A stretch of 64,000 nucleotides of DNA, from contig OY761158.1 of NCBI GenBank assembly GCA_963664405.1, positions 4,672,001 through 4,736,000 on the forward strand, written 5' to 3'. Positions 10,034-34,376 of this stretch are shown here, piece by piece. The DNA is from Thermoanaerobaculia bacterium. Lineage in GTDB: Bacteria > Acidobacteriota > Thermoanaerobaculia > Multivoradales > Multivoraceae. The translations under genes were made by a program, and so were the position numbers. Each line of letters opens with the position of its first letter. The first letter of the stretch is position 1. The notes beneath the pieces were generated by a model. The model did not search any database and had not been told where the DNA came from. It saw only the letters and a program-made list of their open reading frames with translations.

Positions 10034-10040
10034 TAAACAT

Positions 10041-10070: not shown

Positions 10071-10125
10071 TATAAACACCTCCGGGTCCGTCTGGTGCAC
10101 ATACAATCTTGGGGGGCTCGACGAG

Positions 10126-10953
10126 ATGACGACCGACTACATCCACGGATTCTCCGCACCGGAACAGGACCGCCTGACCGCGGTGCAGGAGATCCTGAAT
10201 AAGGCAGAGCTGCGAGAGCTCGATCTGGTCGGCGTACGCTCGATCCTCGACGTCGGCGCCGGGCTCGGCCAATTCACCCGCATGCTCGCTCGTGCGGCCG
10301 GGCCGAGTGCGCGCGTCGTAGGAATTGAGCGGGATTCACGGCAGCGTGTAGAGGCGCAGAGGCAGGCAGAAGCGGCTGGTGAAGCGGATCTGATCGAGCT
10401 GCGCGCGGGCGACGCCGAGCGCTTGCCGCTCGATCCGACCGAGCGAGCTACTTTCGACCTCGTGCACGCAAGGTTTCTGCTCGAGCACGTACCCGACCCT
10501 CTTGCAGTGGTACGCGAAATGGTCGCCGCGGTGCGGCCGGGTGGCCGCGTTGTGTTGGTCGACGATGACCATGATCTGCTTCGCTTGTGGCCGGCGTGCC
10601 CGCCGCTGGAGCGTGCCTGGCGGATTTACTGGGAGAGCTATCGAGATCGCGGGCACGATCCCTTGGTCGGACGCCGTTTGCCTGGGCTGCTGCACGAGGC
10701 GGGCGCTCGGGTCACGCGTGTCACCAGCATCTTCTACGGGGCTCCGCGGCACGGAGCGCTGTTCGATCTGGTCGTGGACAATCTGGCAGGCGTAATCGGA
10801 GGCGCCGCGGAGGAGCTCGATCGATCGGGGCGTCTTTCGCGCGAGGAGCTAGAGGCCGCGCTCGAAGCGTTTCAGCGTTGGCGTCAGTCGGAAGCGGCCA
10901 CGGTGTGGTACTCGCTACCAATGGCAGAGGGGCAGCGGAGCCTCCGGAAGTGA
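10126..10953 (+). CDS. Class I SAM-dependent methyltransferase
   Basis: YIHG N-terminus, ILDVGAGLG, FDLVHARFLLEHV, RPGG motifs. Confidence 0.88.
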   Translation: MTTDYIHGFSAPEQDRLTAVQEILNKAELRELDLVGVRSILDVGAGLGQFTRMLARAAGPSARVVGIERDSRQRVEAQRQAEAAGEADLIELRAGDAERLPLDPTERATFDLVHARFLLEHVPDPLAVVREMVAAVRPGGRVVLVDDDHDLLRLWPACPPLERAWRIYWESYRDRGHDPLVGRRLPGLLHEAGARVTRVTSIFYGAPRHGALFDLVVDNLAGVIGGAAEELDRSGRLSREELEAALEAFQRWRQSEAATVWYSLPMAEGQRSLRK

Positions 10954-11013
10954 TCGGTATCACTTCCTCCGGATGCGGAACATGGCGCCGAGGACGGCGC
11001 ATCCGGAGGCTAG
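10940..11013 (-). repeat. Short copy of family-A structured repeat between convergent genes
   Basis: Reverse-complement TGCGCCGTCCTCGGCGCCATGT core plus hairpin GGAAGTGAT-N4-ATCACTTCC; ends at CTAG 11010-11013, which is the stop of the next gene. Confidence 0.75.
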
Positions 11014-12746
11014 CAGAGCTGTTCAGCCTCTTTTAGAAACGTGTCGCGCAGGGTTTTCTTGTGGATCTTTCCCGTTGCTCCTCGAGGCAATTGCTCGTCC
11101 TGGAGCCAGACGTAGCGGGGTACCTTGTAACGAGCCAGATGCTCTGCCACATGAGCGCGGATGTCGTCAGCTTCCAGGGTCTCGCCCTTCTTGGGCATGA
11201 CCACTACGGCCAGCTCTTCGCCCAGTCGCGGGTCGGGCACACCGAAGGCAGCCGCCTCGAAAACGGCCGGATGCTGGTAGATCACGCGCTCGATCTCGGC
11301 GGAGTAAATGTTCTCGCCACCGCGCAGGATCATGTCTTTCTTGCGGTCCACGATGAAGAAATAGCCCTCATCGTCCATCACCGCGACGTCCCCGGTGTGA
11401 AGCCAACCGTCTCGGATCGTCTCGGCCGTTTCCTCGGGCCGATTCCAGTAGCAGCGGATGTTCATCGGCGACTTCATCACCAGCTCGCCCTCTTCACCGG
11501 TCGCGAGGTCGTTGCCCTCGTCATCGACCACCTTGAGCTCGACAATCGGGCATGGCCGCCCGATGCTCGTCGGGCGCGATACGAGTCCCTCGTCGAAGTT
11601 GCTGGTGCCTCCGCCGTTGGTCTCGGTCATGCCCCAACCGAAGGACCAGTGCTGCTCGGGCATTCGTTCGGCGAGGCGGTCGATCATGCCGCCCGGAATG
11701 GGTGCACCACCTCCGCTGACGGCTACCAGGCTACGCAAGTCCCGTTCTTCGAGGTCGGGAGATTGGAGCATCTCCCAAGTCATGGTGGGGACTCCATTGA
11801 ACGAGGTCACACGCTCGCGCTCGATCAGCTCGAGCCCCTCTTCCGGGCTCCATTTGTACATCATGACGATCTTACGGCCGGCGGCGAAGGATGCCAGTAG
11901 CCCCGCGTGGCATCCGCTGACGTGAAAGAGCGGGAGCGGCATCAGGATCGCCGGCTGGAACTCCGGATCTTCCTGAGGCTCCGGCAAGAGACCCATGGCG
12001 ATGCGCTGAGCGCCGTAAAACCCCCAGCTGCCGAGACCGCTGAGAACACCCCGGTGAGTCGAGAGCGCTCCTTTAGGGAAACCGGTGGTTCCCGAGGTGA
12101 AGAGAATGGTCACGTCATCGTCGGCGCCGAGCTCGACGTCCGGCATCGGCTGCCCGGCGCCTTCGCGGCACAGATCTTCGATGTCGGTCACGCCGGACGG
12201 GAGGTCGCCACTCCAACGAGCACCGATTGCCTGCACCTCCATGTCATCGAGGCGTCCGGCCACACGCTCGTAGCGCTCCTCGTCGAAGAAGGCAACTCTC
12301 GAACCGCTGTCCTGGAGCCCGTACTCGAGCTCCTCTCCGGTCCACCATGCGTTGAGTGAGACCGAGATCGCTCCGGTGGAGGTGATCGCCATGAAGGCGA
12401 CAACCCATTCGGGGAAGTTGCGCATGCCGATCGCGACCCGGTCGCCCTTCTCAACGCCGTAGCGATGGATCAGTTGGTGGGCGACGGCGGCGGCGCGATC
12501 ATAGGTCTCGGCATAGGTCAGCCGAGTGTCTTCGAAGACCAGGAAGTCCTTGTCGCCGTGATCGTTCTTGCCGAGGTCGTAGAGCTCACGGAGGGAGCCT
12601 GGGAGATCGCGGAAGATGCGGTAGTCGATGCCTCGAATGGTCTCGGAGACAACGGGAAAGTCTCCGTCCTCCGCGGTGAGCTTGGCGATGGATTCCTCGT
12701 AGTTCAGTGGTGGGGTGGCAGAGTCTGTTGTTCCGTGCTCGGTCAT
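11010..12746 (-). CDS. Long-chain acyl-CoA synthetase
   Basis: FTSGTTGFPKG, GWGMTE, GWLHTGD, PRGATGK; start ATG 12746. Confidence 0.9.
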   Translation of the reverse strand: MTEHGTTDSATPPLNYEESIAKLTAEDGDFPVVSETIRGIDYRIFRDLPGSLRELYDLGKNDHGDKDFLVFEDTRLTYAETYDRAAAVAHQLIHRYGVEKGDRVAIGMRNFPEWVVAFMAITSTGAISVSLNAWWTGEELEYGLQDSGSRVAFFDEERYERVAGRLDDMEVQAIGARWSGDLPSGVTDIEDLCREGAGQPMPDVELGADDDVTILFTSGTTGFPKGALSTHRGVLSGLGSWGFYGAQRIAMGLLPEPQEDPEFQPAILMPLPLFHVSGCHAGLLASFAAGRKIVMMYKWSPEEGLELIERERVTSFNGVPTMTWEMLQSPDLEERDLRSLVAVSGGGAPIPGGMIDRLAERMPEQHWSFGWGMTETNGGGTSNFDEGLVSRPTSIGRPCPIVELKVVDDEGNDLATGEEGELVMKSPMNIRCYWNRPEETAETIRDGWLHTGDVAVMDDEGYFFIVDRKKDMILRGGENIYSAEIERVIYQHPAVFEAAAFGVPDPRLGEELAVVVMPKKGETLEADDIRAHVAEHLARYKVPRYVWLQDEQLPRGATGKIHKKTLRDTFLKEAEQLC

Positions 12747-12896
12747 ATCCCTGTTTCTCCCGGCTGAGCCCTCTAGAAGTCCCGCATCATAGCGAGGTGC
12801 CGCGATCGAGTGAAGTGGGGAGATGCAGGACCGCAGCGACTTCGAACCGGTATAGGCTCCGCCAACATCAGATTTCTCAGAGCCGGAGAGCACTTC

Positions 12897-13904
12897 ATGG
12901 AATATCGACAACTCGGACGAACTGGGGTTCAGGTCTCGCCCCTCTGCCTCGGGACGATGAACTTCGGCGGAGTCACTCCAGAGGACGAGTCGATACGGAT
13001 CATCGAGCGCGCCTTGGACGCCGGCATCAACTTCATCGACACCGCCAACGTCTACAACGCCGGTGAGAGTGAGCGCGTCATCGGCAAGGCGCTGGCGAAG
13101 GTCGGCGGGCGAGATCGACTGGTAGTGGCCACCAAGGTATTCAACCCGATGGGCAAAGATCCCAACGCTCGAGGTGGCTCCCGCTACCATGTCATTCAGT
13201 CGTGCGAGGACTCACTGCGGCGACTCGGCTTGGATCACATCGATCTCTACCAACTGCATCGCCCTGCTCTCAACATTCCTCAAGACGAGACTCTTCGCGC
13301 TTTCGACGATCTGGTGCGCGCGGGCAAGGTCCGCTACATCGGAGCTTCGACATTCCCCTCCTGGGCGGTGATGGAGGCGCTGGCGATCAGCGAGAAGTAC
13401 AGCCTCAATCGCTATGTGAGCGAGCAGCCGCCCTACAACCTACTCGATCGCCGAATCGAGAACGAGCTCCTGCCTCTGTGTGAGAGGTACCAGCTTGCCG
13501 TCATGCCCTGGTCGCCGGTCGCCGGTGGTGTGTTGACCGGGCGCTATTCGCCCGACGATCGCAAGCCAGAGGGGTCTCGGGCGGAGCGCTGGGGAGCTCG
13601 CTTCGAGACCCGAGTGACGCCGCGCGGCTTGGAGGTCGTGGCCGAGGTCGCCAGGATGGCGGCGGAGCGCGACATGTCGACCGCGCAGCTCGCTCTCTTG
13701 TGGGTGAAAGACCAGCCCCTGGTCACGGCACCCATCTACGGGCCGCGAACGGAGGCCCATCTCGAGGATGCGTTACCGGTGCTCGAGATGGCACTTGCCG
13801 ACGAGGACCGACCCCTCTTCGATGCCCTGGTCGCGCCGGGAAATGTCGTTGCTGACTTTCATGACAGCAACAACTGGATGAAGGCGCGGATCGCTCCGCG
13901 CTAG
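12897..13904 (+). CDS. Aldo/keto reductase
   Basis: MEYRQLGRTG..VS.LCLGTMNFG, FIDTANVY, IDLYQLH, GKVRYIG. Confidence 0.92.
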   Translation: MEYRQLGRTGVQVSPLCLGTMNFGGVTPEDESIRIIERALDAGINFIDTANVYNAGESERVIGKALAKVGGRDRLVVATKVFNPMGKDPNARGGSRYHVIQSCEDSLRRLGLDHIDLYQLHRPALNIPQDETLRAFDDLVRAGKVRYIGASTFPSWAVMEALAISEKYSLNRYVSEQPPYNLLDRRIENELLPLCERYQLAVMPWSPVAGGVLTGRYSPDDRKPEGSRAERWGARFETRVTPRGLEVVAEVARMAAERDMSTAQLALLWVKDQPLVTAPIYGPRTEAHLEDALPVLEMALADEDRPLFDALVAPGNVVADFHDSNNWMKARIAPR

Positions 13905-18239: not shown

Positions 18240-18432
18240 GAATGCGCCGTCCTCGGCGCCATGTTCCGCATCCGTAGGAAATGATAGCGATCATTTCCGT
18301 AGAATGCGCCGTCCTCGGCGCCATGTCGATGTAGCCGTAGGAAGTGATACCCATCACTCCCGTAGAATGCGCCGTCCTCGGCGCCATGTCGATGTGACTC
18401 AAGGCAGTGATATTCATCACTGCATTGAGTCA
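18240..18432 (+). repeat. Three tandem ~63-bp short family-A repeat units
   Basis: GAATGCGCCGTCCTCGGCGCCATGT x3, each followed by a covarying xxxTGAT-N4-ATCAxxx hairpin. Confidence 0.85.
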
Positions 18433-18767: not shown

Positions 18768-19739
18768 ATGATCTGCCGCAGCTGCTGGCTAATGATTGCG
18801 CTGGTCATGACGTTCTTCCTGCTGTGCGCTTCGCCGGGGCTAGCTCAGGGCGAGCGTCCAGCGGCGAGCGACTACCGCACCGCCTGGGGCGCTCCCGATC
18901 TTCAAGGGGTGTGGGACTTTCGCACCATCACTCCCCTCGAGCGCCCGCCCGAGCTTGCCGGCAAGGAGTTCTTGACTGCCAAGGAAGCGGCCGAGTTTGA
19001 AAAGGAGACGGTCGCCGTTCGTCACAAGGATGAGCGCGGCGGAGGCGCCGAAGCGGATGTCAGGCGCGCCTACAACCACTTCTGGTGGGACTACGGCACC
19101 AACGCGGTCGAGACCCGCCGCACTTCATTGATCGTCGATCCCCCCGACGGGCAGATCCCCGCTCTGACCGAAGCGGGAGAAGAGCGTTCCGCCGAGATGC
19201 GAGAGAGGCGTGTACGAGCTGACAATCCGGAAGAAATAGGGACTGCGGCGCGCTGCGTCGTCGGCTTCAATGCCGGGCCGCCGATGAACCCGGCCGCCTA
19301 CAACAACAATGTGCGCATTCTCCAAACCGAAGACCACGTCGTGATCCACAACGAAATGGTGCACGATGCCCGCGTCGTGCCCCTCGATGGCCGCCCCGTT
19401 CTACCGGAGGACTACCGGCAGTTGAGCGGCGAATCGCGGGGTCACTGGGAAGGAAATACTCTCGTCGTAGAGACAGGAGGCTTCACCGACAGGACTTCTT
19501 TTCGCGGCTCAGGTCCATCCATGCATCTGACCGAGCGCTTCACCCGCACCGCCGAAGATGGTCTGCTCTATGAATACACCATCGACGACTCGGAGTCGTT
19601 CACCCGCCCCTGGAGCGTCGAAGTGCCGATGCGCCGACAGACAGAGCCGATGTACGAGTATGCCTGCCACGAGAGCAACTACGGCATGCGCGGCATCCTC
19701 GCCGGAGCTCGCTTCCTCGAAAAGCAATCAGCCCCGTAG
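18768..19739 (+). CDS. Conserved hypothetical secreted protein (PDLQGVW family)
   Basis: Signal peptide; WG.PDLQGVW, RTSLIVDPPDG.IP, GESRGHWEG.TLVVET, YEYACHE.N. Confidence 0.7.
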   Translation: MICRSCWLMIALVMTFFLLCASPGLAQGERPAASDYRTAWGAPDLQGVWDFRTITPLERPPELAGKEFLTAKEAAEFEKETVAVRHKDERGGGAEADVRRAYNHFWWDYGTNAVETRRTSLIVDPPDGQIPALTEAGEERSAEMRERRVRADNPEEIGTAARCVVGFNAGPPMNPAAYNNNVRILQTEDHVVIHNEMVHDARVVPLDGRPVLPEDYRQLSGESRGHWEGNTLVVETGGFTDRTSFRGSGPSMHLTERFTRTAEDGLLYEYTIDDSESFTRPWSVEVPMRRQTEPMYEYACHESNYGMRGILAGARFLEKQSAP

Positions 19740-19790: not shown

Positions 19791-20759
19791 CTACGACAAC
19801 GACTGCGAGCGCACCTGTACGAGGCCGCCCTCGATCGTGGGCGCGAAGTCCCTGGGCAGGTCCGCCTGCCTCACCGAAGACTCCTCGATCGCTGGGTAGT
19901 CTTCTCCGACCGGGCAGACCAGCTCGCAGCGAGCGCACCCGGTGTAGGCCCCTTGCCGCATCACGGTGAGGTGGTAGAAGAGCTGCTGCGTCTCTGTGCG
20001 CCGAAGCTTTCGCGCGGCCTCTTCGCCGGAGGCAGAGTCGAAAATGTGATCGAGGTGCTTCACCATCCGTTGGGGACCGTAGGGCTGACAGGTGCCGGTG
20101 CAGGCCTCGGTGTCGAGAGCGCGGATGTCTCGAAGGCTGGCCCCCTCTGGCGCTCGAGTGGGTATGGCCTGCGCAGGACATACTGCCGCACAGCGACCAC
20201 ATCCTTCGAGGCCCGGGCAGAGCTCGTCTTGCATCGCCTCGTCGGCTTCGAGCTCGAGGTCGGTGATGATGCCGGCGAGAAAGAGCCGCGGTCCATACTG
20301 AGGAGTGAGGAGCATCTGATTGAGGCCGAGGGTGCCGAGCCCGCTCTGAACGGCACCCTGTCTCAGCAGGAGCGAGCCTTGGCCCGCCGGAGTGGCGTAG
20401 CCCAGCGGCTGGCGTCGTAGATCGGGAAGCACGGCGGAGAGGAGGGCCGCCATGCAGTCGCGCTCTTCGAGCCAGTAGGCGAGGCTGGCTGTTGCCTCTT
20501 CCAGGTGACGTGCGGTGCGGCCCATGGCGTATTGCCGAAGAGCTTCATCCGGGGAACAGGCTACGCCGGTTGGGTAGCGCCGAACGAGAACCAGAAGCGT
20601 GCGGTGAAATCTCGAGAGCTGCGAAGGTTTGTCGTACTCCGGCGCCACCGTTTCCAGGGCGTGCCAGTCGCAGACGCCGACCAGATCGATACCCAGCGCC
20701 GCCGCCTGTTCGCGAACGGCTGCCTCGGTCGGCAACGGAAGCTCTTCTGCGGTGCTCAC
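19791..20759 (-). CDS. QueG/reductive dehalogenase-like cobalamin-Fe-S protein (paralog E)
   Basis: AVQSGLGTLGLNQMLLTPQYGPRLFLAGIITDL; CPGLEGCGRCAAVCP and CARCELVCP. Confidence 0.8.
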   Translation of the reverse strand: MSTAEELPLPTEAAVREQAAALGIDLVGVCDWHALETVAPEYDKPSQLSRFHRTLLVLVRRYPTGVACSPDEALRQYAMGRTARHLEEATASLAYWLEERDCMAALLSAVLPDLRRQPLGYATPAGQGSLLLRQGAVQSGLGTLGLNQMLLTPQYGPRLFLAGIITDLELEADEAMQDELCPGLEGCGRCAAVCPAQAIPTRAPEGASLRDIRALDTEACTGTCQPYGPQRMVKHLDHIFDSASGEEAARKLRRTETQQLFYHLTVMRQGAYTGCARCELVCPVGEDYPAIEESSVRQADLPRDFAPTIEGGLVQVRSQSLS

Positions 20760-21748
20760 GAGGCTCCAAGCTGGACCAGATGGTCGAAGTCACGGTCGCG
20801 AATGTACTCCGGATCGCGGTCGGGCGGGGGCCCGAGGAAGGCTACTTCGTGCTTCTCGGGTGTGCGGGTGTGCTTGACGCGCCCCGGTGGCAGGTCCATG
20901 CGCCGATAGGGCACGCGCATGATCTTGCGTATGTCTTTCTTTCCCACCGGGCAGACATACATGCACTCGAAGCACGCCGCGAAAGCGCCGCGTTTCGAAT
21001 TGGTAGCGATGTAGAAATCGCTCCAGAATCGATTCTCGAGCACTTCGGAGGTGTCGAGGGGTCGCTCGGACTCCAGCAGCTTGCGCAGCACGGTGTAGAG
21101 AGAGCGAATGCTGATCCGCATTGCCGCCTGGGAGCAGGCTCGCTGATCGAGGTCGCGATAGTCGTTGACGTGCTCCCCGCGCGCCGCTTCTCGGGGAATC
21201 GCGTCCGGCGGGCAGAGGACCGCGCAGCGGCCACACTCGAGCCCCGGACACAGAGGATCCTCCAGCGGCGAGTCCGGCTCGATCTCGAGGTCGGTCAACA
21301 GAGCTCCCAGGTAGACCCGGGATCCATGGTCGGGGGTGAGGAAGTTGAGGTTGAGGCCGACGTGGCCGAGACCGGCGAACTCGGCGGTCCACTTGAGATC
21401 GAGGAGTCCGGCTCCGGTCCACTTCAAATCCATATCCGCGTACTCTGGCGACACCGGCAACGCTGCATGACCGCGCTCTTCGAGCCACTCGGCGATGTCG
21501 AAGGCGACGTCGTCCGCCATGTCGAGGGCGAGATGAGAGTTGGTGGATTGCGTCGATACGTCTTCCACCCCCAAAGCACCGGTGAGCAGATGCTTGGTGA
21601 CCACGATGATGCTCTTCATTCCCGCCACCAGGAAGTCAGGCTTCTGTTCGTTCGGGACCCGCTCGGAATAGGCCTCGACGCTCGCGACACCCACCGAATC
21701 CGCTCCCTGCGCCAAGCCGAAACGGACCATCTCTTGCTTGAGGCTCAT
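20756..21748 (-). CDS. QueG/reductive dehalogenase-like cobalamin-Fe-S protein (paralog D)
   Basis: AEFAGLGHVGLNLNFLTPDHGSRVYLGALLTDL; CPGLECGRCAVLCP and CFECMYVCP. Confidence 0.82.
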   Translation of the reverse strand: MSLKQEMVRFGLAQGADSVGVASVEAYSERVPNEQKPDFLVAGMKSIIVVTKHLLTGALGVEDVSTQSTNSHLALDMADDVAFDIAEWLEERGHAALPVSPEYADMDLKWTGAGLLDLKWTAEFAGLGHVGLNLNFLTPDHGSRVYLGALLTDLEIEPDSPLEDPLCPGLECGRCAVLCPPDAIPREAARGEHVNDYRDLDQRACSQAAMRISIRSLYTVLRKLLESERPLDTSEVLENRFWSDFYIATNSKRGAFAACFECMYVCPVGKKDIRKIMRVPYRRMDLPPGRVKHTRTPEKHEVAFLGPPPDRDPEYIRDRDFDHLVQLGAS

Positions 21749-22737
21749 TTTCGCGCCTCACGATCCCAGGTCGTGTTGCGGCGTACCTGGGGGCCCAAGC
21801 TCTCGACTTCGACCCAGCCGTCGGCGATCTTGCGCGGCAACGTCTCCGGCAGGTCGGAGCGGCGGTGGTGGGTGTCGCGGAGTGCTTCCCAATCTTCTCC
21901 GACCGGACAAACCTGGACGCACTCGCTGCACCCGGTGAAGGCCGCCTCCTTCATCATCGCCATCTCCGTCCATATTTCGCCGCTCTTGCGACTGCGCATG
22001 CGGCCCCACATCTCCTTTCCTTCGGTCGACTCGAAGATGTGTACCAGGTGATCCTCGAAGTTTTGGAAGCCGAAGGGCTGGCAGGATCGCGCGCAGGCGG
22101 CGCTGTCGAGACCGCGAACGGACTCAGTCGGCGCCCCAGCCATGGCGCGGCGGGGAATGGCGTCTTCAGGACAGATCGCTGCGCAGCGGCCGCACTCCTC
22201 GAGCCCGAGGCAGATCTCCTGATCCAGAACGGGGTCGGGCTCGACCTCGAGCGTCGTCAATACTCCGGAGAGGTGAACCCGAGGCCCGAAGCTCGGGGTC
22301 AGCACCATGAGATTGAGTCCCCAGGTGCCGAGCCCGGCGGCAACGGCGGCGTGGCGTAGCAGGGTCGAGCCCTGGCCGGCGGGGGTCAGATCGAGTGGCC
22401 CTCGGCGGGCAAAGTCGAGAGCGGTGCTCGGGGTCGGGAGAGCGAGATATTGCCTCTCCTCGAGCCATCGCGCCACCGACTCCGCGGCGTGATCCAGAAT
22501 TCGTAGATTGCGCCCACCGGCCAGCTGCTTCGAAGGCAGGTGGCGGGCCATCGTCACCCCGCGGAGGGTCTTCTTGGCGAAGACGATGAAGGTTTTCGCG
22601 TCGGCAGCAAGGGTGGAGGGGCGGTGATCCTCGGCGACGGTCTCCTCGAGGCCCGCGACCGCGGCGAAGCGCGCGAGGTCGACTCCCTGTGCGAGCACCA
22701 GCTCTCTGAGCTCTTCTTTAGCGATCGGTGGTGGCAC
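21745..22737 (-). CDS. QueG/reductive dehalogenase-like cobalamin-Fe-S protein (paralog C)
   Basis: AAVAAGLGTWGLNLMVLTPSFGPRVHLSGVLTTL; CLGLEECGRCAAICP and CSECVQVCP; GTG start 22737. Confidence 0.8.
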   Translation of the reverse strand: MPPPIAKEELRELVLAQGVDLARFAAVAGLEETVAEDHRPSTLAADAKTFIVFAKKTLRGVTMARHLPSKQLAGGRNLRILDHAAESVARWLEERQYLALPTPSTALDFARRGPLDLTPAGQGSTLLRHAAVAAGLGTWGLNLMVLTPSFGPRVHLSGVLTTLEVEPDPVLDQEICLGLEECGRCAAICPEDAIPRRAMAGAPTESVRGLDSAACARSCQPFGFQNFEDHLVHIFESTEGKEMWGRMRSRKSGEIWTEMAMMKEAAFTGCSECVQVCPVGEDWEALRDTHHRRSDLPETLPRKIADGWVEVESLGPQVRRNTTWDREARK

Positions 22738-22739
22738 GG

Positions 22740-23057
22740 CTACTTGAGCTCGTCGCGGTATTTGAAGACGTAGGAGATACCGTGGCGGGCGAAGGCGCGG
22801 CAGGCCTTGTCCTTGAACTCGATAGCCTTCTCCCACTCTTCCAAGTCGTAAGTGTCGCGCTCTGCGACCACTCGGATCTCCCGCACCGTTCGCTCGTCGA
22901 GTCCGAGCTTCTCGGCGATCTCGCGGTCCGAATGGCCTCGTCTGCGTTTTTCCGGGGGCAGGTGCTCCTGGAAATTCACCTGGACCGAGTCCGACAGCGC
23001 GATGACCTCGTCCTTGTACTTCTTGTAAATCTCTGGTTCGACGAAAAAAAAGCTCAC
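22740..23057 (-). CDS. Small hypothetical protein with HTH-like motif inside the QueG-like operon
   Basis: 105 aa; SDREIAEKLGLDERTVREIR; fills the gap between paralogs B and C. Confidence 0.75.
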   Translation of the reverse strand: MSFFFVEPEIYKKYKDEVIALSDSVQVNFQEHLPPEKRRRGHSDREIAEKLGLDERTVREIRVVAERDTYDLEEWEKAIEFKDKACRAFARHGISYVFKYRDELK

Positions 23058-23067
23058 GATTTTCGTC

Positions 23068-23934
23068 CTATCTCAAAGTTCGTTCTTCAGCGCCGACGGG
23101 GCACACCCGCATGCACTCGTAGCACTGAGCCTGACTCTGTGACGCATAGGTCATGGACCAAAGGGTGCGGGTGAAGAAGCTCGAATAGAGGATCATCTTC
23201 CGCTTCTCGGGGTCCTCCTCGTCGAGGGCGGCTTCGAGACCCTTCTGGAAGCCGGGCACCCAGTGAGTGTGGACACGGGTAGCGCAGCGGGCGGTATTGT
23301 AGCGGCGGTTGGCGAAACGGCCCTCGACGATGTCGCCGCCGAGGCAGCCGCCGTCGTCGATGGGACAGACCTTCATGCACGGCGTCGTGCCTTCGGCCTC
23401 CCACATGTCGAGGCATGCCGGGGCCGGGCAAGCCGGCTCGGCGCGGCCGTCGATCGGCAGAGGGCAGGTAGTGACGATGGCGGAGTAGTAGAGCATGCCG
23501 TGCTTTGGGTGGAGGAGGGGGCCGGCGAGACTCGGAGAGGCGCAGCCCGCCAGCTCGGCGGCTAGAGCGACACTGAGAAATGGCTGGTTCCCCTTGTTGA
23601 CGCCGGGAGGGACGAAGAGGGCGTAGTAGCCGAAGCTCGCCTCGATGAATTTCGCGGCCTTCAACCCCAGTGAGTTGATCCGGTCGCTGGTCCCCATCGT
23701 TTCCTGATGTTCGTGCTTCGGGCTCACCCAGTCTCCGGCTCGCGGTGGGCTACCACCGACCACGAAGACGCGCTTGGCTCCCGGCAGCAGGTCCTGTGGG
23801 CGAAAGCCCTCGGGGGCGGCGGCGAAGTCGTCGACGTCGGCAACGCCGCTGACCAGGGCGCCTCCGCGCGCGGAGAACTCGGTGAGCTGTTGCTTGGCCA
23901 GCTCGAAGTCCAGCTCTGCCTCGGGCTCGCTCAT
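23068..23934 (-). CDS. QueG-like cobalamin-Fe-S protein (paralog B, divergent cluster motif)
   Basis: AAELAGCASPSLAGPLLHPKHGMLYYSAIVTT; CPAPAC-x11-CMKVCP..GGC and CYECMRVCP; ATG 23934 overlaps stop of paralog A (ATGA). Confidence 0.75.
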   Translation of the reverse strand: MSEPEAELDFELAKQQLTEFSARGGALVSGVADVDDFAAAPEGFRPQDLLPGAKRVFVVGGSPPRAGDWVSPKHEHQETMGTSDRINSLGLKAAKFIEASFGYYALFVPPGVNKGNQPFLSVALAAELAGCASPSLAGPLLHPKHGMLYYSAIVTTCPLPIDGRAEPACPAPACLDMWEAEGTTPCMKVCPIDDGGCLGGDIVEGRFANRRYNTARCATRVHTHWVPGFQKGLEAALDEEDPEKRKMILYSSFFTRTLWSMTYASQSQAQCYECMRVCPVGAEERTLR

Positions 23935-24824
23935 TTCAGTCTCTTGTGGTTCTGGCCTACCGGACATACCCGCATGCACTCGAAGCACTGTGCGACGCTC
24001 TCCTTGTAGAAGCTGAGCGACGAGAGCGACTGAGAGAAGAAGTCGGAATAGATCATCGATTTGCGGCGGTCCTGGTCTTCTTCGGCGACGATGTCGACGA
24101 GACTCTTCTGCACGCTTCCGACTCCGAAATTCATCGATCTCGAGTGACAGCGCTCGCGGTTGTAGGACGAGTAAGAGATGCGCCCGTCCTCGTCGATCTC
24201 GCCTTCGAGGCACCCGCCCTCATCTTTGGGGCAGGAGGCCAGACAGGGCGTTGTGCCGAGCTTTTCGTACATTTGTACGCAACTGGGAGACGGGCATGCG
24301 TCCTTCTGTAGCACGTGGTTGGGCTCGAGCGGCAAGGTCGTGACCAGGGCGGCGTAGTAGAGGAGACCGTATTCCGGGTGGAGAATGATATTCGCCGCCA
24401 GCGAGCGGGTTCCAAGTCCCGCCAGCACCGCCGCCAGCATCATGCTCATCGGCGGATGATGTCCTGCGGTTGGCAGAGAGGGCGCCTGCAGCGCGTTGTA
24501 GCCGTACTCCCTCTCGATGAAGTCGCACATCACATGCACTGCGACGTTCTCTCGGAAGTCGTAGCCGGTGATCTCCATCACCCGATGGTCCGGAGAGCGC
24601 CAGGCCGCGGCGGTCGGGCCCTGGTTGCCGGCGACCACCACGCTCTGGGCTCCCGGCAGGATGTCTTCGGGTCGATGGCCTTCGGGGACATACTCGTTGA
24701 AGGCGTTGGCGGCAGCGACTCCGACGATTAGCGCCCCAGCCTTCTTGCCCGCTTCACAAACGGGTGCGGACGGTAGCAGGCCTTCTCGGCCGGTGTCTTC
24801 GCTGGCTGAGGCTTCTATTTCCAT
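23931..24824 (-). CDS. QueG-like cobalamin-Fe-S protein (paralog A, divergent cluster motif)
   Basis: AAVLAGLGTRSLAANIILHPEYGLLYYAALVTTL; CPSPSC-x11-CLASCP..GGC and CFECMRVCP; start ATG 24824. Confidence 0.75.
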   Translation of the reverse strand: MEIEASASEDTGREGLLPSAPVCEAGKKAGALIVGVAAANAFNEYVPEGHRPEDILPGAQSVVVAGNQGPTAAAWRSPDHRVMEITGYDFRENVAVHVMCDFIEREYGYNALQAPSLPTAGHHPPMSMMLAAVLAGLGTRSLAANIILHPEYGLLYYAALVTTLPLEPNHVLQKDACPSPSCVQMYEKLGTTPCLASCPKDEGGCLEGEIDEDGRISYSSYNRERCHSRSMNFGVGSVQKSLVDIVAEEDQDRRKSMIYSDFFSQSLSSLSFYKESVAQCFECMRVCPVGQNHKRLK

Positions 24825-25059: not shown

Positions 25060-25635
25060 GTGCAGGAAAGAAGCGCAGCACTCCGTGAGCACATCCTCGA
25101 TGTCGCGTCGGACCTCTTCTATCAGCATGGGGTTCGCAACGTCGGCATCGATCGAATCATCACCGAATCGGGCATCGCCAGGATGACCCTCTATAACCAC
25201 TTCAAGTCGAAGGACCTGCTGATTCAGGAGTATCTCCTGCGCTCCTCGCGCCAATGGGTCGCTTGGTATTCCGCCAAGATCCAGGAAGCTTCCCAAGACC
25301 CTGGCGAGAGGATTCTCGCGGCTTTCGATGTTCTCGACGGGTGGTTTCGGTCCAGCAAATTTCGGGGTTGCTCGGTCGCGAACGCCTCGGTCGAGCTGGC
25401 CGATGAGTGCCATCCGGTTGCCGAGGTCAAGAAGGAGTATCACGCCAACCTTCGGGGGCTGTTTCGCGGCCTCGTCGAAGAGGCTGGCGCTGGGGATCCG
25501 GAAGAGATAGCCGAGGAGCTCTTTGTGCTACTGCGCGGAGCCATGCTTTCGGCGCATCTCGACGGTCCTGAGGGCGTGGCGGCACGAAGTCGCCGTTCGG
25601 CGGAGCGTCTGCTTTCGGCCCACATTCCCAACTGA
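25060..25635 (+). CDS. TetR/AcrR family regulator (NemR-like C-terminal domain)
   Basis: ILDVASDLFYQHG...GIDRII.ESGIARMTLYNHF.SKD; FRGC..NA..E. Confidence 0.92.
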   Translation: MQERSAALREHILDVASDLFYQHGVRNVGIDRIITESGIARMTLYNHFKSKDLLIQEYLLRSSRQWVAWYSAKIQEASQDPGERILAAFDVLDGWFRSSKFRGCSVANASVELADECHPVAEVKKEYHANLRGLFRGLVEEAGAGDPEEIAEELFVLLRGAMLSAHLDGPEGVAARSRRSAERLLSAHIPN

Positions 25636-25668: not shown

Positions 25669-27264
25669 ATGAGACGGAGAGACTTCCTCACCGGGTCTGC
25701 CGGGGTTGCGGCCAGCTTGATGATGGAGGGTTTGTCGCAGCCGGCTGAAGGCCAGGTTGGGGACTGGGATGCTGGTGAAGTGGCCCACATCCTTCCAAGT
25801 GTCAGCCACGATCGCTTCTTGATCAAAGTCTCCTTTCGTACACCGGCTTCCGGCATTCCTTTGCTTCGCCTCGGCAGGCGTCTTGTGCCTGGCAAGCTGA
25901 GCGACCGAGTGGGTCGATTTTGGGCCTTCTATGTAGCGGGCTTGGAGCCGATGACGAGTTACAGGCTCGAGCTCCTCAGCGACGAGGAGCGGCCGCTGTG
26001 CCAGCCCTGGTTCCTCGGCACCTTTCCTCCTCCCGATTCTCTGCCGGATCGCTTCAGGCTGTTGATTTTTACCTGTGCCGGTGGGCACGAGGATGCGCGG
26101 CTCGCGGACGGCACACAGGTCTTTCTATCTTTGGACGATCGGCGACGTTTGCTGCGACGTGCCCTCTCCTTTCAGCCGCAGGCTGCCATGGCTGTCGGCG
26201 ATCACGTCTACTGGGACATGCGCGCGGGCCGCTCTGCGAGCATGGTTCGCGAGAGCGAGCTGGCGAAAGAGCTCGATGCTTCGGCATTCCGCCGCGAGCT
26301 CCCGGTGCTCGGAAGCGAGAACGAGGGCCGTCTGGTTGGTGTGGTCGATCCCCAGATCGCGGATCTTTACGGCAGCATGCTACGCAGCGTGCCTTCGTAT
26401 TTCGTTCTCGACGATCACGACTATTTCGAAAACGACCACGCCGACGACGAGATCGTCACCTTCCCGCCGGATCCCTTTATGCTGCAGTTGGCACAGGCGA
26501 CCCAGCGTCTCTACTACCCCGAGCTGCTGCCCGATTCGCGGCGGCCACTCAATCTTGGGGGAGGGCGTGCATTCGACAGCATGCCGGGTCTGTCAGAGTC
26601 TTTTGGCACGCTGCGCTTCGGGCGCCTGGTCGAAGGCTTGATCTACGACTGCCGCCGCTTCCTCTCTCTCAAGGGGCCAAGCGCTGGATTCGTTCCGGAG
26701 GCCACCGAATCTTGGCTACTTTCTCGTATGGCGGCGGCGGAATCACGCCACGTGGTGAACATCCCTTCTACTCCGGTGGGGTGGAGCGCCGGAAAGTGGG
26801 CCGAGTGGTATCCCGACCTGCTCCAGCCCGATGGCCGTCTCGGGACCTCGGTCCGGAAGCCTTATTGGCAAGAGGGGTGGCTGGCGCAGCACGATCGGCT
26901 CCTGCGTGGGGCGGCGGCGATGGCCGACACACCACTCTTTGTCAGCGGTGACCTTCACGCTCTCGGCGTAGGACGGATTCTGGGCTCCGCCACCCTCGAT
27001 CTCTCCCACAATCCGGTCGTCTCCGTACTCTCGGGCCCCCTGGGTACCGGACCTCCCGGCTGGCCCTCGGCCTCCCGTGGCACCGGCCCTCAGGTGCCGA
27101 CCGGGCTCGACCTGGAGGAGGATCTTGCTCCGGTTGAAAAAAACGGATTCACCCTGCTCGACTTCGGGCTCGAAAGTGTGACGATTCGCATGTTCCAGTG
27201 GAAGCTGGGTGAAGACCCGTCGCTGATCGACGATCTGGAGCCGTTTCTGACCTTGGAGGTTTGA
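25669..27264 (+). CDS. Tat-exported PhoD-like metallophosphoesterase
   Basis: MRRRDFL Tat motif; GDHVYWD, DDHDYFEND and SGDLH metal motifs. Confidence 0.7.
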   Translation: MRRRDFLTGSAGVAASLMMEGLSQPAEGQVGDWDAGEVAHILPSVSHDRFLIKVSFRTPASGIPLLRLGRRLVPGKLSDRVGRFWAFYVAGLEPMTSYRLELLSDEERPLCQPWFLGTFPPPDSLPDRFRLLIFTCAGGHEDARLADGTQVFLSLDDRRRLLRRALSFQPQAAMAVGDHVYWDMRAGRSASMVRESELAKELDASAFRRELPVLGSENEGRLVGVVDPQIADLYGSMLRSVPSYFVLDDHDYFENDHADDEIVTFPPDPFMLQLAQATQRLYYPELLPDSRRPLNLGGGRAFDSMPGLSESFGTLRFGRLVEGLIYDCRRFLSLKGPSAGFVPEATESWLLSRMAAAESRHVVNIPSTPVGWSAGKWAEWYPDLLQPDGRLGTSVRKPYWQEGWLAQHDRLLRGAAAMADTPLFVSGDLHALGVGRILGSATLDLSHNPVVSVLSGPLGTGPPGWPSASRGTGPQVPTGLDLEEDLAPVEKNGFTLLDFGLESVTIRMFQWKLGEDPSLIDDLEPFLTLEV

Positions 27265-27266
27265 TC

Positions 27267-28364
27267 ATGAGTGTCATTCGTTCTTGCGATCGACTGCCTT
27301 CTGCTTCGGCCCTGCTGATTCTGTTGATGGTCTCAGCCGCCTCGTTGGAAGCTGCCGACCTCTCTCCTTTGGCCGCGGCGATGGATAGGAACGGCGACAG
27401 CCAAGTCACCAAGGAGGAACTGTCGCCGTCAGCCGGGCGGACCTTGCTCGCGGCTCTCGACGCGAACGGGGACGGCGTTCTCGATACCGACGAGCTCCTC
27501 ACCATCGGCCGCGGCGGTGCCGGGCTCGGACGGCGCTCCCGCAGAGGTCCCGCCAACTGGGACTATGCGGAGACCAGCGAAGACGGCATCCGTATCTTCA
27601 AGAACATCGAATACGCAACGGGTCCGGAGTATGCCGGGGGTCGAGGCAAGCTCGACGTGTATGTGCCCAAGGGCGAGGGCCCCTTCCCGGTCATCGTGTT
27701 CTTTCATGGCGGGGGGCTTACGAACGGTGACAAGGCGAGTCTGGTCGGGCTCGGCCCTCGCTTCGCCAGGCTCGGCTTCTTGACGGTGACGCCGAACTAT
27801 CGACTGTCACCCGACTTCTACTATCCGGCCTACGTCGAGGATGGAGCGCGAGCTTTCAAGTGGAGCTGGGAGCATGCCGACGATTACAGCGGCGATCGAG
27901 AGTCTCTGGTGGTTTCCGGAGGCTCCGCCGGTGGACACGTAGCGGCTCTGCTGAGTGTCGACGAGAGATTTCTTGCCGCCCAGGGCCTGAGCCTCGCCAA
28001 TATCAAAGTGTCGTTCCCGATCACCGCCATGATGGACGCGACCCGGGCGGGTAGGGAACGCGTGTTGGCTACCTGGGCCGGCGATCTCGAGCTGGCGAAG
28101 CGAGCCTCCCCGATCCGCTACGTTAGCGAGCAGCTGCCGCCGATGCTGATCACGGTTGCCGATGGCGATACCGAAGATCGGAGAAATCAGAACCAGGAGA
28201 TGTTCGAGGCCATGAAGAGTGCTGGGCACCGGGCCGTCGAGTTCGCCTGGCTCGTCGACCGAACGCACAACTCGATCCTCCCCAATATGCTCGAGGAAGG
28301 CGATCCGACGGTCGAACTGCTGCTCGCTTTTATGAGCAAACACGGAGTCCGAGGGCGCGAGTGA
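27267..28364 (+). CDS. Secreted alpha/beta hydrolase (HSL-like esterase) with N-terminal EF-hand pair
   Basis: DRNGDSQVTKEE and DANGDGVLDTDE EF-hands; HGGG, GGSAGG, catalytic D/H region. Confidence 0.82.
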   Translation: MSVIRSCDRLPSASALLILLMVSAASLEAADLSPLAAAMDRNGDSQVTKEELSPSAGRTLLAALDANGDGVLDTDELLTIGRGGAGLGRRSRRGPANWDYAETSEDGIRIFKNIEYATGPEYAGGRGKLDVYVPKGEGPFPVIVFFHGGGLTNGDKASLVGLGPRFARLGFLTVTPNYRLSPDFYYPAYVEDGARAFKWSWEHADDYSGDRESLVVSGGSAGGHVAALLSVDERFLAAQGLSLANIKVSFPITAMMDATRAGRERVLATWAGDLELAKRASPIRYVSEQLPPMLITVADGDTEDRRNQNQEMFEAMKSAGHRAVEFAWLVDRTHNSILPNMLEEGDPTVELLLAFMSKHGVRGRE

Positions 28365-30883: not shown

Positions 30884-32152
30884 TCATGGGTCTCCCGCTC
30901 GTAGAACGAGGGCGGAGCCGTAGGCCGGCGTTCCCCACCCCAGGTTCGCAGTTATAGATACCTCTTTGACCTGGCGGCAACCGCCTTCGCTGTAATCGTA
31001 GCTGTGCCGTCGCTTTCCGTCGACTCCCAGCGGGCACGAGTCGTCCACGTCACCTCGCAACTGGCGTACGTTCTCTACAACCATGTTGACTCCGTGAGTG
31101 TAGACCTCGCAGAGGTGGCCGCCGCTGGTATTGTTCGGCCGCTTGCCGCCCAGGCGCATTGTGCCGTCGCTGACATAGACGCCCCCTTCGCCTTTCTTGC
31201 AGAAGCCGAAATCTTCGAGCTGCAGCATCGAAGTGAAGGTGAAGGCGTCGTAGGAGCCGGTGGCATCGATGTCCTCGGGCCCGACCCCGGCATTCGACCA
31301 CAGCCGCTTTCTCGCGTATTTGGCGGCCACGGTGGTGATCGGGCCGAACTGGTAGTGATTGTCCCCTCGCGGCTTGCAGCATCGGCCGACGACAGCCTGG
31401 ATGAGCGCCGGCCGGTGTCGGCAGTTGCGGGCGCGGTCGGCGGAAGTGACGATGATGGCGGTCGCGTTGTCGGTCTCGACGCAGCAGTCGAGGAGGTGGA
31501 GGGGCTTGGCGATGATGCGGCTCGAAAGCACATCGTCGACGGTAACGCGCTTGCGGTACACCGCCTTGGGATTCGAGGAGGCATGCTCGCTGTGGATCAC
31601 CTTGACCATGGCGATCTGCTCCGGTGTGGTGCCGAACTCATACATATGACGCATGAAAGTGTGGCTGAAACGCTGTGCCGGGCTCTGTAGTCCGTAGACT
31701 CGGTCATGAAGCTGGTCACCGATGATGTCGGCAGCAGCCTGAGATCCGGTGCCGCCTACTCGCCTCTGCGAGTAACCGTTCATGGCGCGAAAGATCACTA
31801 TCGTCTCGCACATCCCGGCCTCGATCACCCCCATCGCCATGCCGACGAGGGCCTCGGTGCTCGAGCCGCCGCCGCTGACATCCATAAAGAAGTTGGGGCG
31901 GATCCCGAGGTCGCCCGCGACGACCGGCGACCCGGTCGAATCGTTCGAGGAGTACGACATCATGCCGTCGATGTGTGCCGCCTCGAGCCCCGCGTCCTTC
32001 ATCGCGTTGGAGACTGCAAGGGTTGCCAGCGCGCGAGTGGTCACTCCGGAGCCTCGCCGATAAGGGGTCTCGCCAACGCCAACGATCGCGTACTTGTCGC
32101 GAAGAAATCGCGGAGTGGTGGTCTCGATCTCGTGCGGCTGCTTCGTGGCTTT
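30884..32152 (-). CDS. SCP-x/Ltp2-type thiolase-like protein (start codon unclear)
   Basis: AIVGVGET, LLDCCVETD, YDAFT, NTSGGHLCE; frame open to 32152 but first canonical start is GTG 32044. Confidence 0.8.
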   Translation of the reverse strand, partial: KATKQPHEIETTTPRFLRDKYAIVGVGETPYRRGSGVTTRALATLAVSNAMKDAGLEAAHIDGMMSYSSNDSTGSPVVAGDLGIRPNFFMDVSGGGSSTEALVGMAMGVIEAGMCETIVIFRAMNGYSQRRVGGTGSQAAADIIGDQLHDRVYGLQSPAQRFSHTFMRHMYEFGTTPEQIAMVKVIHSEHASSNPKAVYRKRVTVDDVLSSRIIAKPLHLLDCCVETDNATAIIVTSADRARNCRHRPALIQAVVGRCCKPRGDNHYQFGPITTVAAKYARKRLWSNAGVGPEDIDATGSYDAFTFTSMLQLEDFGFCKKGEGGVYVSDGTMRLGGKRPNNTSGGHLCEVYTHGVNMVVENVRQLRGDVDDSCPLGVDGKRRHSYDYSEGGCRQVKEVSITANLGWGTPAYGSALVLRAGDP

Positions 32153-34261: not shown

Positions 34262-34376
34262 GGAAATGAAGGCCTCCTTTACCGTTCCTTTTCGCGACGT
34301 CGAACCAGGCCCGACATTATGACCCGGAACACTATCGGTAGAATGCCTTATGTGATTGAAAGTGTTCAAGGTGGTG

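Follow-up and report, generated by a model that had tools for sequence, protein, structure and literature searches.

Two neighboring modules of QueG/dehalogenase-like iron-sulfur genes in a Thermoanaerobaculia genome

Organization of the locus

Six tightly coupled minus-strand genes lie at positions 19791–24824 of the window, a 64,000-nucleotide stretch of contig OY761158.1 (positions 4,672,001 to 4,736,000) from the Thermoanaerobaculia bacterium assembly GCA_963664405.1, referred to here as genome G000. Five code for related proteins of 288–330 residues, A to E, and the sixth codes for a small helical protein, X, located between B and C. A divergently oriented regulator gene lies upstream:

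25060–25635, plus strand: TetR-family regulator gene (Pfam TetR_N, E 2.8e-12), 235 bp upstream of A
23931–24824, minus strand: gene A, 297 aa, a divergent QueG/RdhA-fold protein (fold predicted) with nine conserved Cys, and the most conserved member of A-B-X
23068–23934, minus strand: gene B, 288 aa, a paralogue of A with the same Cys pattern, coupled to A by an ATGA overlap
22740–23057, minus strand: gene X, 105 aa, a predicted all-helical protein with a central segment resembling sigma-70 region 4, following a 10-nt gap after B
21745–22737, minus strand: gene C, 330 aa, GTG start, first gene of the C-D-E trio, following a 2-nt gap after X
20756–21748, minus strand: gene D, 330 aa, middle gene of the trio, with a 4-nt overlap with C
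19791–20759, minus strand: gene E, 322 aa, last gene of the trio, with a GTGA overlap with D

The TetR gene may be a local regulator, although its membership in the unit is uncertain; TetR is not among the 25 commonest Pfam families of nearest neighbors at other A-B-X loci, and a promoter and terminator scan found no more sites than chance.

The five large proteins share an A..AGLG..L...L.P..G core and fall into two subtypes. A and B carry CPxPxC-x11-CxxxCP, followed by GGC, one further Cys and CxxCxxxCP, whereas C, D and E carry Cx4-5CxxCxxxCP, one further Cys and CxxCxxxCP; in C, the first motif reads CxGLEECGRCxxxCP. Among homologues of A the alignment shows invariant C177, C182, C194, C198, C205, C226, C280, C283 and C287, together with G87-Y88-D89, and an alignment of 25 orthologues of B shows invariant C169, C174, C186, C190, C197, C217, C271, C274 and C278. 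No RR pair lies within the first 40 residues of A–E, and no 19-residue window has a Kyte-Doolittle hydropathy above 1.63, a maximum that falls in the conserved core and is not a membrane helix. Similarity among the five is far beyond chance: tblastn within the genome gives 44% identity for A-B (E 1e-62 to 3e-68), 43% for C-E (E 5e-74), 35% for C-D (E 1e-46) and 27% for A-D (E 6e-16). A 72%-identical copy of D lies at G000:C1:1124253–1125230.

The first-pass annotation had described a tightly coupled operon of five QueG/reductive-dehalogenase-like paralogs in two subtypes, without a DYH motif, a Tat signal or an RdhB anchor, and this observation is confirmed by the sequence, although it only alluded to the sixth gene, X, which proves the most informative part.

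Relationship to QueG and reductive dehalogenases

All five proteins are distant relatives of epoxyqueuosine reductase (QueG) and reductive dehalogenases (RdhA), but none is QueG or a canonical RdhA. The NCBIfam QueG model (TIGR00276) scores 50.3 bits for D, 48.6 for E, 38.1 for C and 12.8 for A, with no hit for B, against a cut-off of 200. The RdhA model (TIGR02486) scores 43.1 bits for E, 35.2 for C, 35.1 for A and 31.3 for D, again with no hit for B, against a cut-off of 160.35. The matches of C, D and E to both models cover only the ~70-residue core, and a Pfam scan returned only Fer4-type and LdpA Fe-S-binding domains for C, D and E and weak Fer4 hits for A and B. C is closer to QueG/RdhA than A or B. 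In a phmmer search of PDB sequences, E matches RdhA 8q4h at E 1.3e-11 over the core plus the first Fe-S motif, QueG 5d08 at E 1.4e-6 and NpRdhA 4ras at E 0.0023, with the AGLG...P..G core aligned to the equivalent segment of RdhA and QueG. E has 381 homologues at E≤0.001 and A has 659, of which the best 120 are 62–89% identical and carry no Pfam domain.

For A, similarity to QueG of solved structure is marginal by sequence (E 0.2 as a single sequence and 0.05 as a profile), and the relationship is clearer in the predicted fold. Foldseek searches with the AF2 model return PceA at E 1.7e-5, QueG at E 1e-4 and the B12-processing protein MMACHC/CblC (PDB 3sbz, 3sc0) at E 0.04. VIA structure comparison gives QueG (PDB 5d08, 5d0a, 5d6s) Z 13.4 over 200 residues at 3.9 Å, covering QueG residues 2–254 of about 375, then PceA (4uqu) Z 10.8 and NpRdhA (4ras, 6zxx) Z 10.4, while the N-terminal half also aligns with FMN nitroreductases at Z 6–7 and with MMACHC and CblD at Z of about 6. 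The model has a mean pLDDT of 70.3, with low confidence exactly in the core loop (136–145) and the Fe-S segments (173–175 and 271–283). [quoted passage not shown]

Several features separate these proteins from each of the closest known systems. First, QueG is likewise soluble and cytoplasmic, but it carries a strictly conserved D-Y-H motif plus a catalytic Asp (D100-Y101-H102 and D130 in S. thermophilus; PMC4646009) and a C-terminal HEAT-repeat domain. In the profile alignment to 5d08, A has G87-Y88-D89-F90-R91-E92 opposite G-K-D-Y-H-D, placing an invariant Tyr-Asp pair one position out of register, although the register itself is uncertain; class III cobalamin-dependent enzymes bind a base-off corrinoid with a Tyr above the corrin, and Y88 of A lies next to the place of the QueG Tyr in this alignment; B, C, D and E show no DYH at the aligned region, and C, D and E have nothing similar. 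There is no HEAT domain, as A and B end within about 10 residues of the last CxxCxxxCP, and C, D and E within about 45–65. The spacing of the first Fe-S motif is altered, and the genes occur as conserved sets of paralogues instead of a single copy. The genome has a true queG, scoring 330.5 bits, at G000:C1:445594–446586. Second, relative to respiratory RdhA, which also has the Cys for two Fe-S clusters, the proteins are about 150 residues shorter and lack a Tat signal, and no RdhB-like membrane gene is present, as X is the only further ORF within the operon. Third, NpRdhA, a catabolic dehalogenase that is soluble, lacks Tat and comes from aerobic or facultative heterotrophs, is a single ~700-aa chain with extra domains, whereas short paralogues occur here in sets of two or three with no fused reductase. 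Fourth, CblC shares the nitroreductase-like B12-binding fold but has no ferredoxin part, and the match is much weaker.

These comparisons bear on three other readings. It is possible, though unlikely, that the proteins are soluble catabolic dehalogenases of free organohalides that work like NpRdhA, with any ligase neighbors incidental or serving later pathway steps. The closest folds, the cytoplasmic character and the absence of Tat and RdhB agree with this reading, and the loci most similar to A are labeled as sponge- and marine-associated genomes, habitats that are rich in organobromines. However, the RdhA model scores are far below the cut-off, no fused or adjacent reductase module like that of NpRdhA is present, the family also occurs in soil and groundwater Rokubacteria/Methylomirabilota, and the fusions of X to ligases described below point to activated acids. 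An equally doubtful alternative is that these Fe-S proteins lost, or never had, corrinoid, so that the nitroreductase-like half would bind flavin, another cofactor or nothing, and the proteins would act as electron carriers or a different kind of reductase. The nitroreductase alignments, the marginal sequence similarity to QueG and the failure to find a cobalamin synthase in the genome are consistent with this view, but the QueG and RdhA matches stand clearly above those to nitroreductases and cover both halves of the protein, and the conserved AGLG...P..G core aligns with the equivalent segment of RdhA and QueG. Least likely is action on RNA or on cobalamin itself, as alternative tRNA-modification reductases or CblC-like processors of scavenged corrinoids. 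QueG is the best structural match, MMACHC and CblD appear among the weaker ones, and the genome appears to depend on imported B12; against this, there is no HEAT tRNA-binding domain or DYH motif, the neighborhoods are catabolic and CoA-linked rather than RNA- or B12-related, and no riboswitch lies in the window.

Two separately conserved modules

Comparisons across genomes show that the operon is not one five-subunit system but two ancient modules placed side by side. A relative of A is encoded in 189 genome stretches across many phylum labels. Among 80 such loci that were retrieved, A-B-X lies in the same order in 72, and of the other eight, six stop at a contig end; A is 60–89% identical among them, and X is 53–76% identical across 24 loci. 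C-D-E is a separate trio, found elsewhere without A-B-X beside it. It recurs in locus L095 of genome G236 at 66/73/64% identity, in L049 (C 59% identical), and in L096, L098 and L100–L102. The trio is rare: only 2 of 301 genomes sampled from the phylum have E at 1e-20, and only 1 of 5 tested A-B-X genomes has a trio. The two modules are adjacent only here, as A-B-X-C-D-E, and in L049, as C-D-E-A-B-X, while an A-like fourth gene (A') follows the trio in L100–L102.

The paralogues are old. In a tree, the A (support 99), B (96), D (96) and C+E (97) groups are well supported, with C supported at 98 and an E group, which includes the third gene of the metagenome trios, at 97; A–E together (96) stand apart from the genome's own QueG and from 12 TIGR02486 RdhA sequences. 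Recent lineage-specific duplication without conserved synteny, set beforehand as a condition that would refute the initial proposal, is therefore excluded. The interpretation offered with the first-pass annotation is only partly supported: the kinship with QueG/RdhA, the distinction from QueG and the two subtypes hold, but a single A/B plus C/D/E hetero-oligomer is not supported because the modules mostly occur apart, and cobalamin binding, dehalogenation and epoxide reduction remain inferences from the fold.

The X protein and association with AMP-forming ligases

The central segment of X, LSDxEIAxxLGLxExxVREIR, gives only sub-threshold Pfam hits, HTH_23 at 20.1 bits (cut-off 24.6) and Sigma70_r4_2 at 16.2 bits (cut-off 25.7). 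The AF2 model (pLDDT 81.3) has no PDB fold match below E 1; the best Foldseek E is 1.0, with sigma-70 region-4 structures among the top rows. The conserved N- and C-terminal flanks of X have no counterpart in sigma-70 region 4 or LuxR-type HTH domains. X-like domains also occur fused to enzymes. Among 153 X-like cluster representatives, P0322 and P0375 are A/B-type proteins with a C-terminal X domain (hhalign probability 100 and 99.95), and P0358, P0365 and P0386 have an N-terminal X domain joined to an AMP-binding domain. The ligase gene directly after the trio plus A' in L102 and L101 has an X-like N-terminus (probability 92–93%), and that ligase is closest to salicylate- and dihydroxybenzoate-AMP ligases (E 1e-65).

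Because the central motif of X looks like a DNA-binding HTH, X may be a regulator rather than a subunit. An improbable extension of this view is that A/B-type proteins are ligand-, redox- or B12-sensing partners with X as their DNA-binding output, and the P0322/P0375 architecture, a sensor-like domain followed by an HTH-like domain, resembles a one-component regulator. However, two paralogues each keeping the Cys for two clusters at 60–89% identity across phyla would be unusual for a sensor, X is also fused to ligases, and the C-D-E trios have no X.

Ligase genes also occur in the neighborhoods of both modules. Of 34 non-redundant A-B-X loci, 12 hold an AMP-binding gene, mostly adjacent, corresponding to 14 hits in 472 kb against 39 in 6.78 Mb genome-wide in G000, a roughly five-fold difference. 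Locus L083 reads MFS-MFS-FeADH-paralogue-ECH-ligase-A-B-X, and L079 reads CoA-transferase-4HBT thioesterase-ligase-A-B-X. Ligases also flank several trio loci, and L098 contains two PaaK-type ligases, the trio and a three-subunit Mo-hydroxylase. The other 22 loci have no ligase within the retrieved flanks, no ligase is adjacent to the operon in the window, where the nearest lies 6.6 kb away, and the nearest-neighbor tally is diffuse (of 122 ORFs, alpha/beta hydrolase 7, AMP-binding 6 and ECH 4).

A possible role in reduction of activated acids

The region holds two ancient, separately inherited modules that happen to be fused into one operon in this genome. The analysis itself establishes the homology and predicted fold, the conserved synteny, the old age of the paralogues, the X fusions and the ligase association, whereas corrinoid binding, heteromer formation and subunit contacts, the substrate class and the chemistry are inferred only. 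The QueG/RdhA fold is already known, but no published description of such paralogue sets was found. In the tentatively preferred reading (probability about 0.4), each module would form a soluble cytoplasmic heteromer of its paralogues. The nitroreductase-like N-terminal half of each large protein corresponds to the cobalamin-binding core in QueG, RdhA and CblC, and the C-terminal half has Cys enough for two [4Fe-4S] clusters; electrons would pass through these clusters to a corrinoid, which would carry out a reductive elimination (dehalogenation, dehydroxylation or deoxygenation) on an organic acid, probably aromatic, first activated as an acyl-CoA or acyl-adenylate by a neighboring AMP-forming ligase. 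X, as a free protein or a fused domain, would tie the reductase to the ligase, and may also couple the system to transcription. The true QueG and one cobalamin riboswitch in the genome point to B12 use by the organism, but CobS was not found in the genome, so any corrinoid would have to be imported, and no electron-donor gene lies in either module.

A bolder and unlikely possibility, which the data nevertheless leave standing, is that A-B-X and C-D-E(-A') represent a previously unrecognized class of heteromeric, cytoplasmic corrinoid/[4Fe-4S] reductases that work on aryl acids after activation by a dedicated AMP-forming ligase, with the sigma-region-4-like X domain as a docking module that physically couples ligase and reductase. 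The outcome would be ATP-independent reductive dehalogenation, dehydroxylation or deoxygenation of aryl-CoA or aryl-adenylates in widespread and largely aerobic uncultured phyla: Acidobacteriota, Rokubacteria, Tectomicrobia, Planctomycetota, Binatia and Woeseiaceae.

Gene organization

Six tightly packed genes lie on the minus strand of the window, and a TetR-family gene diverges upstream of them:
24824-23931, minus strand: gene A, 297 aa, first gene of the series
23934-23068, minus strand: gene B, 288 aa, ATGA overlap with A
23057-22740, minus strand: gene X, 105 aa, 10-nt gap after B
22737-21745, minus strand: gene C, 330 aa, 2-nt gap after X
21748-20756, minus strand: gene D, 330 aa, 4-nt overlap with C
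20759-19791, minus strand: gene E, 322 aa, GTGA overlap with D
25060-25635, divergent: TetR-family gene
25669-27264, plus strand: 531-aa protein directly after the TetR gene, with a clear twin-arginine-type N-terminus (MRRRDFLTGSAGVAASL) and no Pfam hit
27261-28364: EF-hand plus alpha/beta-hydrolase protein following the 531-aa protein
18768-19739, plus strand: 323-aa protein convergent with gene E, with a signal-peptide-like N-terminus and no Pfam family
18240-18421: 63-bp tandem repeat of 2.5–2.9 copies (82–88% matches) between the glyoxalase-family gene and the DUF3303 gene

The observation in the first-pass annotation, a tightly coupled set of five related genes, is confirmed, and the core-segment and Cys-cluster motifs that it listed are all present; its one omission is X, the small sixth gene. 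A and B are 44% identical, C and E are 43% identical, and D is about 35% identical to C and E, whereas A/B and C/D/E share 23–27% identity, with in-genome tblastn E-values down to 6e-16; the relationship is thus real and more than chance. None of the five A-E proteins has a twin-arginine pair in its first 40 residues or a membrane-helix-like segment. A promoter and terminator scan found no more sites than were found in shuffled sequences, and an Rfam search of the window returned no match, and so no riboswitch. Three metatranscriptome-library contig sets yielded only two short contigs, at 21900-22133 in C and 23743-23903 in B; because DNA can be present in such libraries, these are not counted as evidence of expression.

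Relationship to QueG and reductive dehalogenases

Pfam identifies only generic 4Fe-4S domains in C, D and E, and essentially nothing in A and B. The NCBIfam QueG and RDH models match C, D and E over only the ~70-residue core plus the first cluster motif, with scores of 31–50 bits against cut-offs of 200 and 160; A reaches 35 bits on the RDH model, and B has no match. Against PDB sequences, E matches RdhA 8q4h (E 1.3e-11), QueG 5d08 (1.4e-6) and NpRdhA 4ras (0.0023), whereas A finds only QueG, at E 0.2 as a single sequence and 0.05 as a 25-sequence profile. An AlphaFold2 model of A (mean pLDDT 70.3) matches PceA, QueG and NpRdhA by Foldseek at E 1.7e-5 to 1.4e-4. In a second structural comparison using VIA, QueG scores Z 13.4 (200 residues, 3.9 A, QueG residues 2-254), PceA 10.8 and NpRdhA 10.4, while FMN nitroreductases score about 7 and MMACHC/CblD about 6. 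All five proteins therefore belong to the QueG/RdhA fold, as judged from sequence matches and a predicted structure, but to no curated family within it. A search of the ESM Atlas gave only unnamed or Fer4-labelled clusters, and a search of a plasmid collection found no relative of A.

The five proteins are neither QueG nor canonical RdhA. QueG is defined by a strictly conserved D-Y-H motif, a further catalytic Asp and a C-terminal HEAT-repeat domain, while a single Tyr above the corrin is shared by the whole class (PMC4646009). None of the five proteins has DYH, and none has room for a HEAT domain; A has an invariant G-Y-D-F at the aligned place. The genome, a single 6.78-Mb contig, carries a proper queG scoring 330.5 bits at C1:445594-446586. 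It also contains a second pair of paralogues at C1:1124253-1126083 (locus L007, 7242-9510, minus strand), just downstream of DUF1552 and DUF1592/PSD-family cytochrome genes on the same strand. One of the pair is a copy 72% identical to D; the other is divergent and sits in the tree next to a short TIGR02486-positive protein from a Chloroflexota genome, with only 92% SH-aLRT support. The possibility that the five window proteins are decaying copies of queG is rejected, as all frames are intact and each orthologue group is conserved.

Two modules rather than one system

A scan of one genome per species with a profile of A identified 189 stretches encoding a relative, and the best 80 loci were examined. 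Their records name Acidobacteriota (including Candidatus Multivorans), Entotheonella/Tectomicrobia, Rokubacteria/Methylomirabilota, Planctomycetes, Binatia, Woeseiaceae and other Gammaproteobacteria, Anaerolineales, Myxococcota and Burkholderiales. A-B-X occurs in that order in 72 of the 80 loci, with median gaps of about 15–19 nt. Six of the other eight loci end at a contig edge; of the remaining two, locus L045 has A-B without X, and locus L062 has A alone. C-D-E accompanies A-B-X in only one of the 80 loci, L049, and there in the order C-D-E-A-B-X. Two Woeseiaceae loci carry a distant D-like paralogue two genes upstream. A search for longer forms of A found two database proteins, P0397 and P0398, of 565 and 600 aa, that join A-like and B-like parts; the connecting stretches read like out-of-frame translation, and they are probably assembly frameshifts rather than natural A-B fusions.

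Conversely, G236, a genome in the same family as the window's genome, has a C-D-E trio in the same order at 66/73/64% identity, but 2.2 Mb away from its A-B-X. Only 2 of 301 genomes sampled from the phylum have E at E<=1e-20, and only 1 of 5 tested A-B-X genomes from other lineages has a trio. In a Bryobacterales genome (G302:C1:3105812-3110769; the genome of locus L057), the trio has a gap of about 2.2 kb between the E-like and D-like genes, which suggests an inserted gene. A metagenome scan with an E-family profile returned 39 loci, of which the first 33 were analyzed. These include further trios (loci L096, L098 and L100-L102), and in three of them (L100-L102) an A-like gene at 36–37% identity, here called A', follows the trio. 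About twenty loci carry a more distant pair. The interpretation in the first-pass annotation is partly supported, but its single A/B + C/D/E hetero-oligomer is not, and the reading must be corrected from one five-subunit system to two juxtaposed modules.

Age of the paralogues

A quick maximum-likelihood tree with SH-aLRT support was built from 65 proteins: the five window proteins, orthologues from 19 loci, the genome's own QueG, and 12 TIGR02486 proteins from Chloroflexota genomes. Support values are 99 for A, 96 for B, 98 for A+B+A', 96 for D and 97 for C+E, and the third gene of the metagenome trios falls with E (97). All A-E-type proteins together (96) stand apart from QueG and the RdhAs. 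Although long branches for QueG, A' and the Woeseiaceae paralogue make the deep order unsafe, the duplications clearly predate the spread among phyla. The first-pass annotation had proposed that recent, lineage-specific duplication without conserved synteny would refute its reading; this is not what is observed.

The X protein and its fusions

X is 53–76% identical across 24 loci and is predicted to be all-helical (pLDDT 81.3). Its center reads like a sigma-70 region-4/LuxR-type HTH, but every Pfam hit is below threshold, and a Foldseek search found no PDB fold match below E 1. X was also considered as a phosphopantetheine carrier; this was rejected because the invariant Ser43 is replaced by Thr or Ala in the ligase-fused forms, and because the motif fits an HTH better. 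A complex prediction for A+B+X with X as partner scored 0.50, but 0.60 with chain A replaced, and counts neither for nor against binding.

A profile search of 1.84 billion cluster representatives found 153 X-like proteins at E<=0.001, nearly all of 40–145 aa. Two kinds of fusion stand out. First, P0322 (391 aa) and P0375 (401 aa) are A/B-type proteins with X at the C-terminus; hhalign against the A and B profiles gives probabilities of 100 and 99.95, at 32–33% identity over about 270 columns. Second, P0358, P0365 and P0386 have X at the N-terminus of an AMP-binding domain. In genomic context, the 700-aa ligase gene that directly follows C-D-E-A' in L102 has an X-like N-terminus (probability 92%, E 6e-7) and is 39% identical to P0365, and its catalytic part is closest to salicylate- and 2,3-dihydroxybenzoate-AMP ligases (E about 1e-65). 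The related locus L101 shows the same arrangement. X is therefore physically tied, in different lineages, both to the reductase-like proteins and to aryl-acid-type ligases. No X-like domain was found in the window's own 726-aa ligase (11010-13190), in the gene after B in L045, or in the ligase of locus L099.

Genomic neighborhoods

No gene other than A, B and X is universally linked. Among the two nearest ORFs on each side of 34 non-redundant A-B-X loci (122 ORFs, from crude calls), the most common Pfam families are alpha/beta hydrolase (7), AMP-binding (6), enoyl-CoA hydratase (4), luciferase-like monooxygenase (3), ABC ATPase (3), cupin (3) and 4HBT thioesterase (3). An AMP-ligase HMM identifies a ligase gene, mostly adjacent, in 12 of the 34 loci. 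This corresponds to 14 hits in 472 kb, compared to 39 in 6.78 Mb in the window's genome, or about five-fold, although the loci are not phylogenetically independent and the backgrounds of other genomes may differ.

Several loci have clear operon-like arrangements. Locus L083 reads MFS-MFS-Fe-ADH-paralogue-ECH-ligase-A-B-X, and locus L079 reads CoA-transferase-4HBT thioesterase-ligase-A-B-X. The metagenome contig L098 contains two PaaK-type ligases and the trio, followed directly (9072-13100) by the gamma, alpha and beta subunits of a xanthine-dehydrogenase-family Mo enzyme, that is, a 2Fe-2S subunit, a MoCo subunit and an FAD subunit; this is the subunit order of 4-hydroxybenzoyl-CoA reductase. 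L102 and locus L104 have ligases beside the paralogues, and the distant pairs sit next to Liv-type ABC transporter genes. In the window itself no ligase is adjacent, but four AMP-binding (acyl-CoA ligase type) genes lie within the 64 kb, where about 0.4 would be expected from the genome-wide density:
4771-6288, plus strand: AMP-binding gene
11010-13190, minus strand: AMP-binding gene
32699-34591, minus strand: AMP-binding gene
42865-44388, plus strand: AMP-binding gene
A thiolase-like gene (30884-32044) and SDR and epimerase genes lie nearby, and the region looks rich in acid and CoA metabolism.

Predicted function

The analysis itself establishes the QueG/RdhA fold at the level of sequence and prediction, the presence of Cys residues for two clusters per protein, a cytoplasmic location as judged from sequence, the conserved and translationally coupled sets of old paralogues, the X fusions, and the enrichment of acid-activating ligases. 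What these proteins do with such features is inferred, without biochemical evidence for cofactor, assembly or substrate. Each set would assemble into a heteromer, and at least one subunit would hold a corrinoid; A is the best candidate, being the most conserved and keeping an invariant pair, Tyr88-Asp89, near the QueG catalytic motif. The enzyme would perform a reductive elimination on a ligase-activated, probably aromatic, acid, and X would either dock ligase and reductase or couple the system to transcription. The organism can use B12, since it has QueG and one cobalamin riboswitch (G000:C1:3091089-3091285 of the source genome, plus strand, 93.1 bits), the only one found in the genome. No CobS (PF02654) was detected in the genome, so the organism probably imports corrinoids.

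The probability of the full reading is put at about 0.4. Of its parts, the existence of two ancient modules of this fold is highly likely and heteromer formation is somewhat more likely than not, whereas corrinoid binding is an even proposition and an acyl-CoA or acyl-AMP substrate remains doubtful. Rival possibilities are that the proteins are plain catabolic dehalogenases, corrinoid-free Fe-S proteins, a sensor-regulator device with X as its output, or proteins with RNA- or B12-directed roles.

Significance

Only a few activities of the QueG/RdhA class of B12 enzymes have been characterized, namely respiratory and catabolic dehalogenation and epoxyqueuosine reduction. Literature searches found no description of these families, of paralogue sets in this enzyme class, or of the X domain, although RDH surveys such as PMC12219181 may list such sequences in their supplements. 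Public sources label the proteins QueG, ferredoxin or hypothetical. The genes described here define at least five old, well-conserved subfamilies that curated models do not name, and their occurrence in fixed sets of paralogues suggests heteromeric enzymes not known in this class. Module A-B-X is conserved at 60–89% identity across many phyla of mostly uncultured bacteria, so whatever it does is under strong constraint and is ecologically widespread. The fusions of X to both enzyme types, together with the ligase neighborhoods, provide a concrete and testable lead to its role. If corrinoid-dependent, the modules would add a new B12 requirement, and possibly a new route for halogenated or hydroxylated aromatic acids, to sponge, sediment, soil and groundwater communities.
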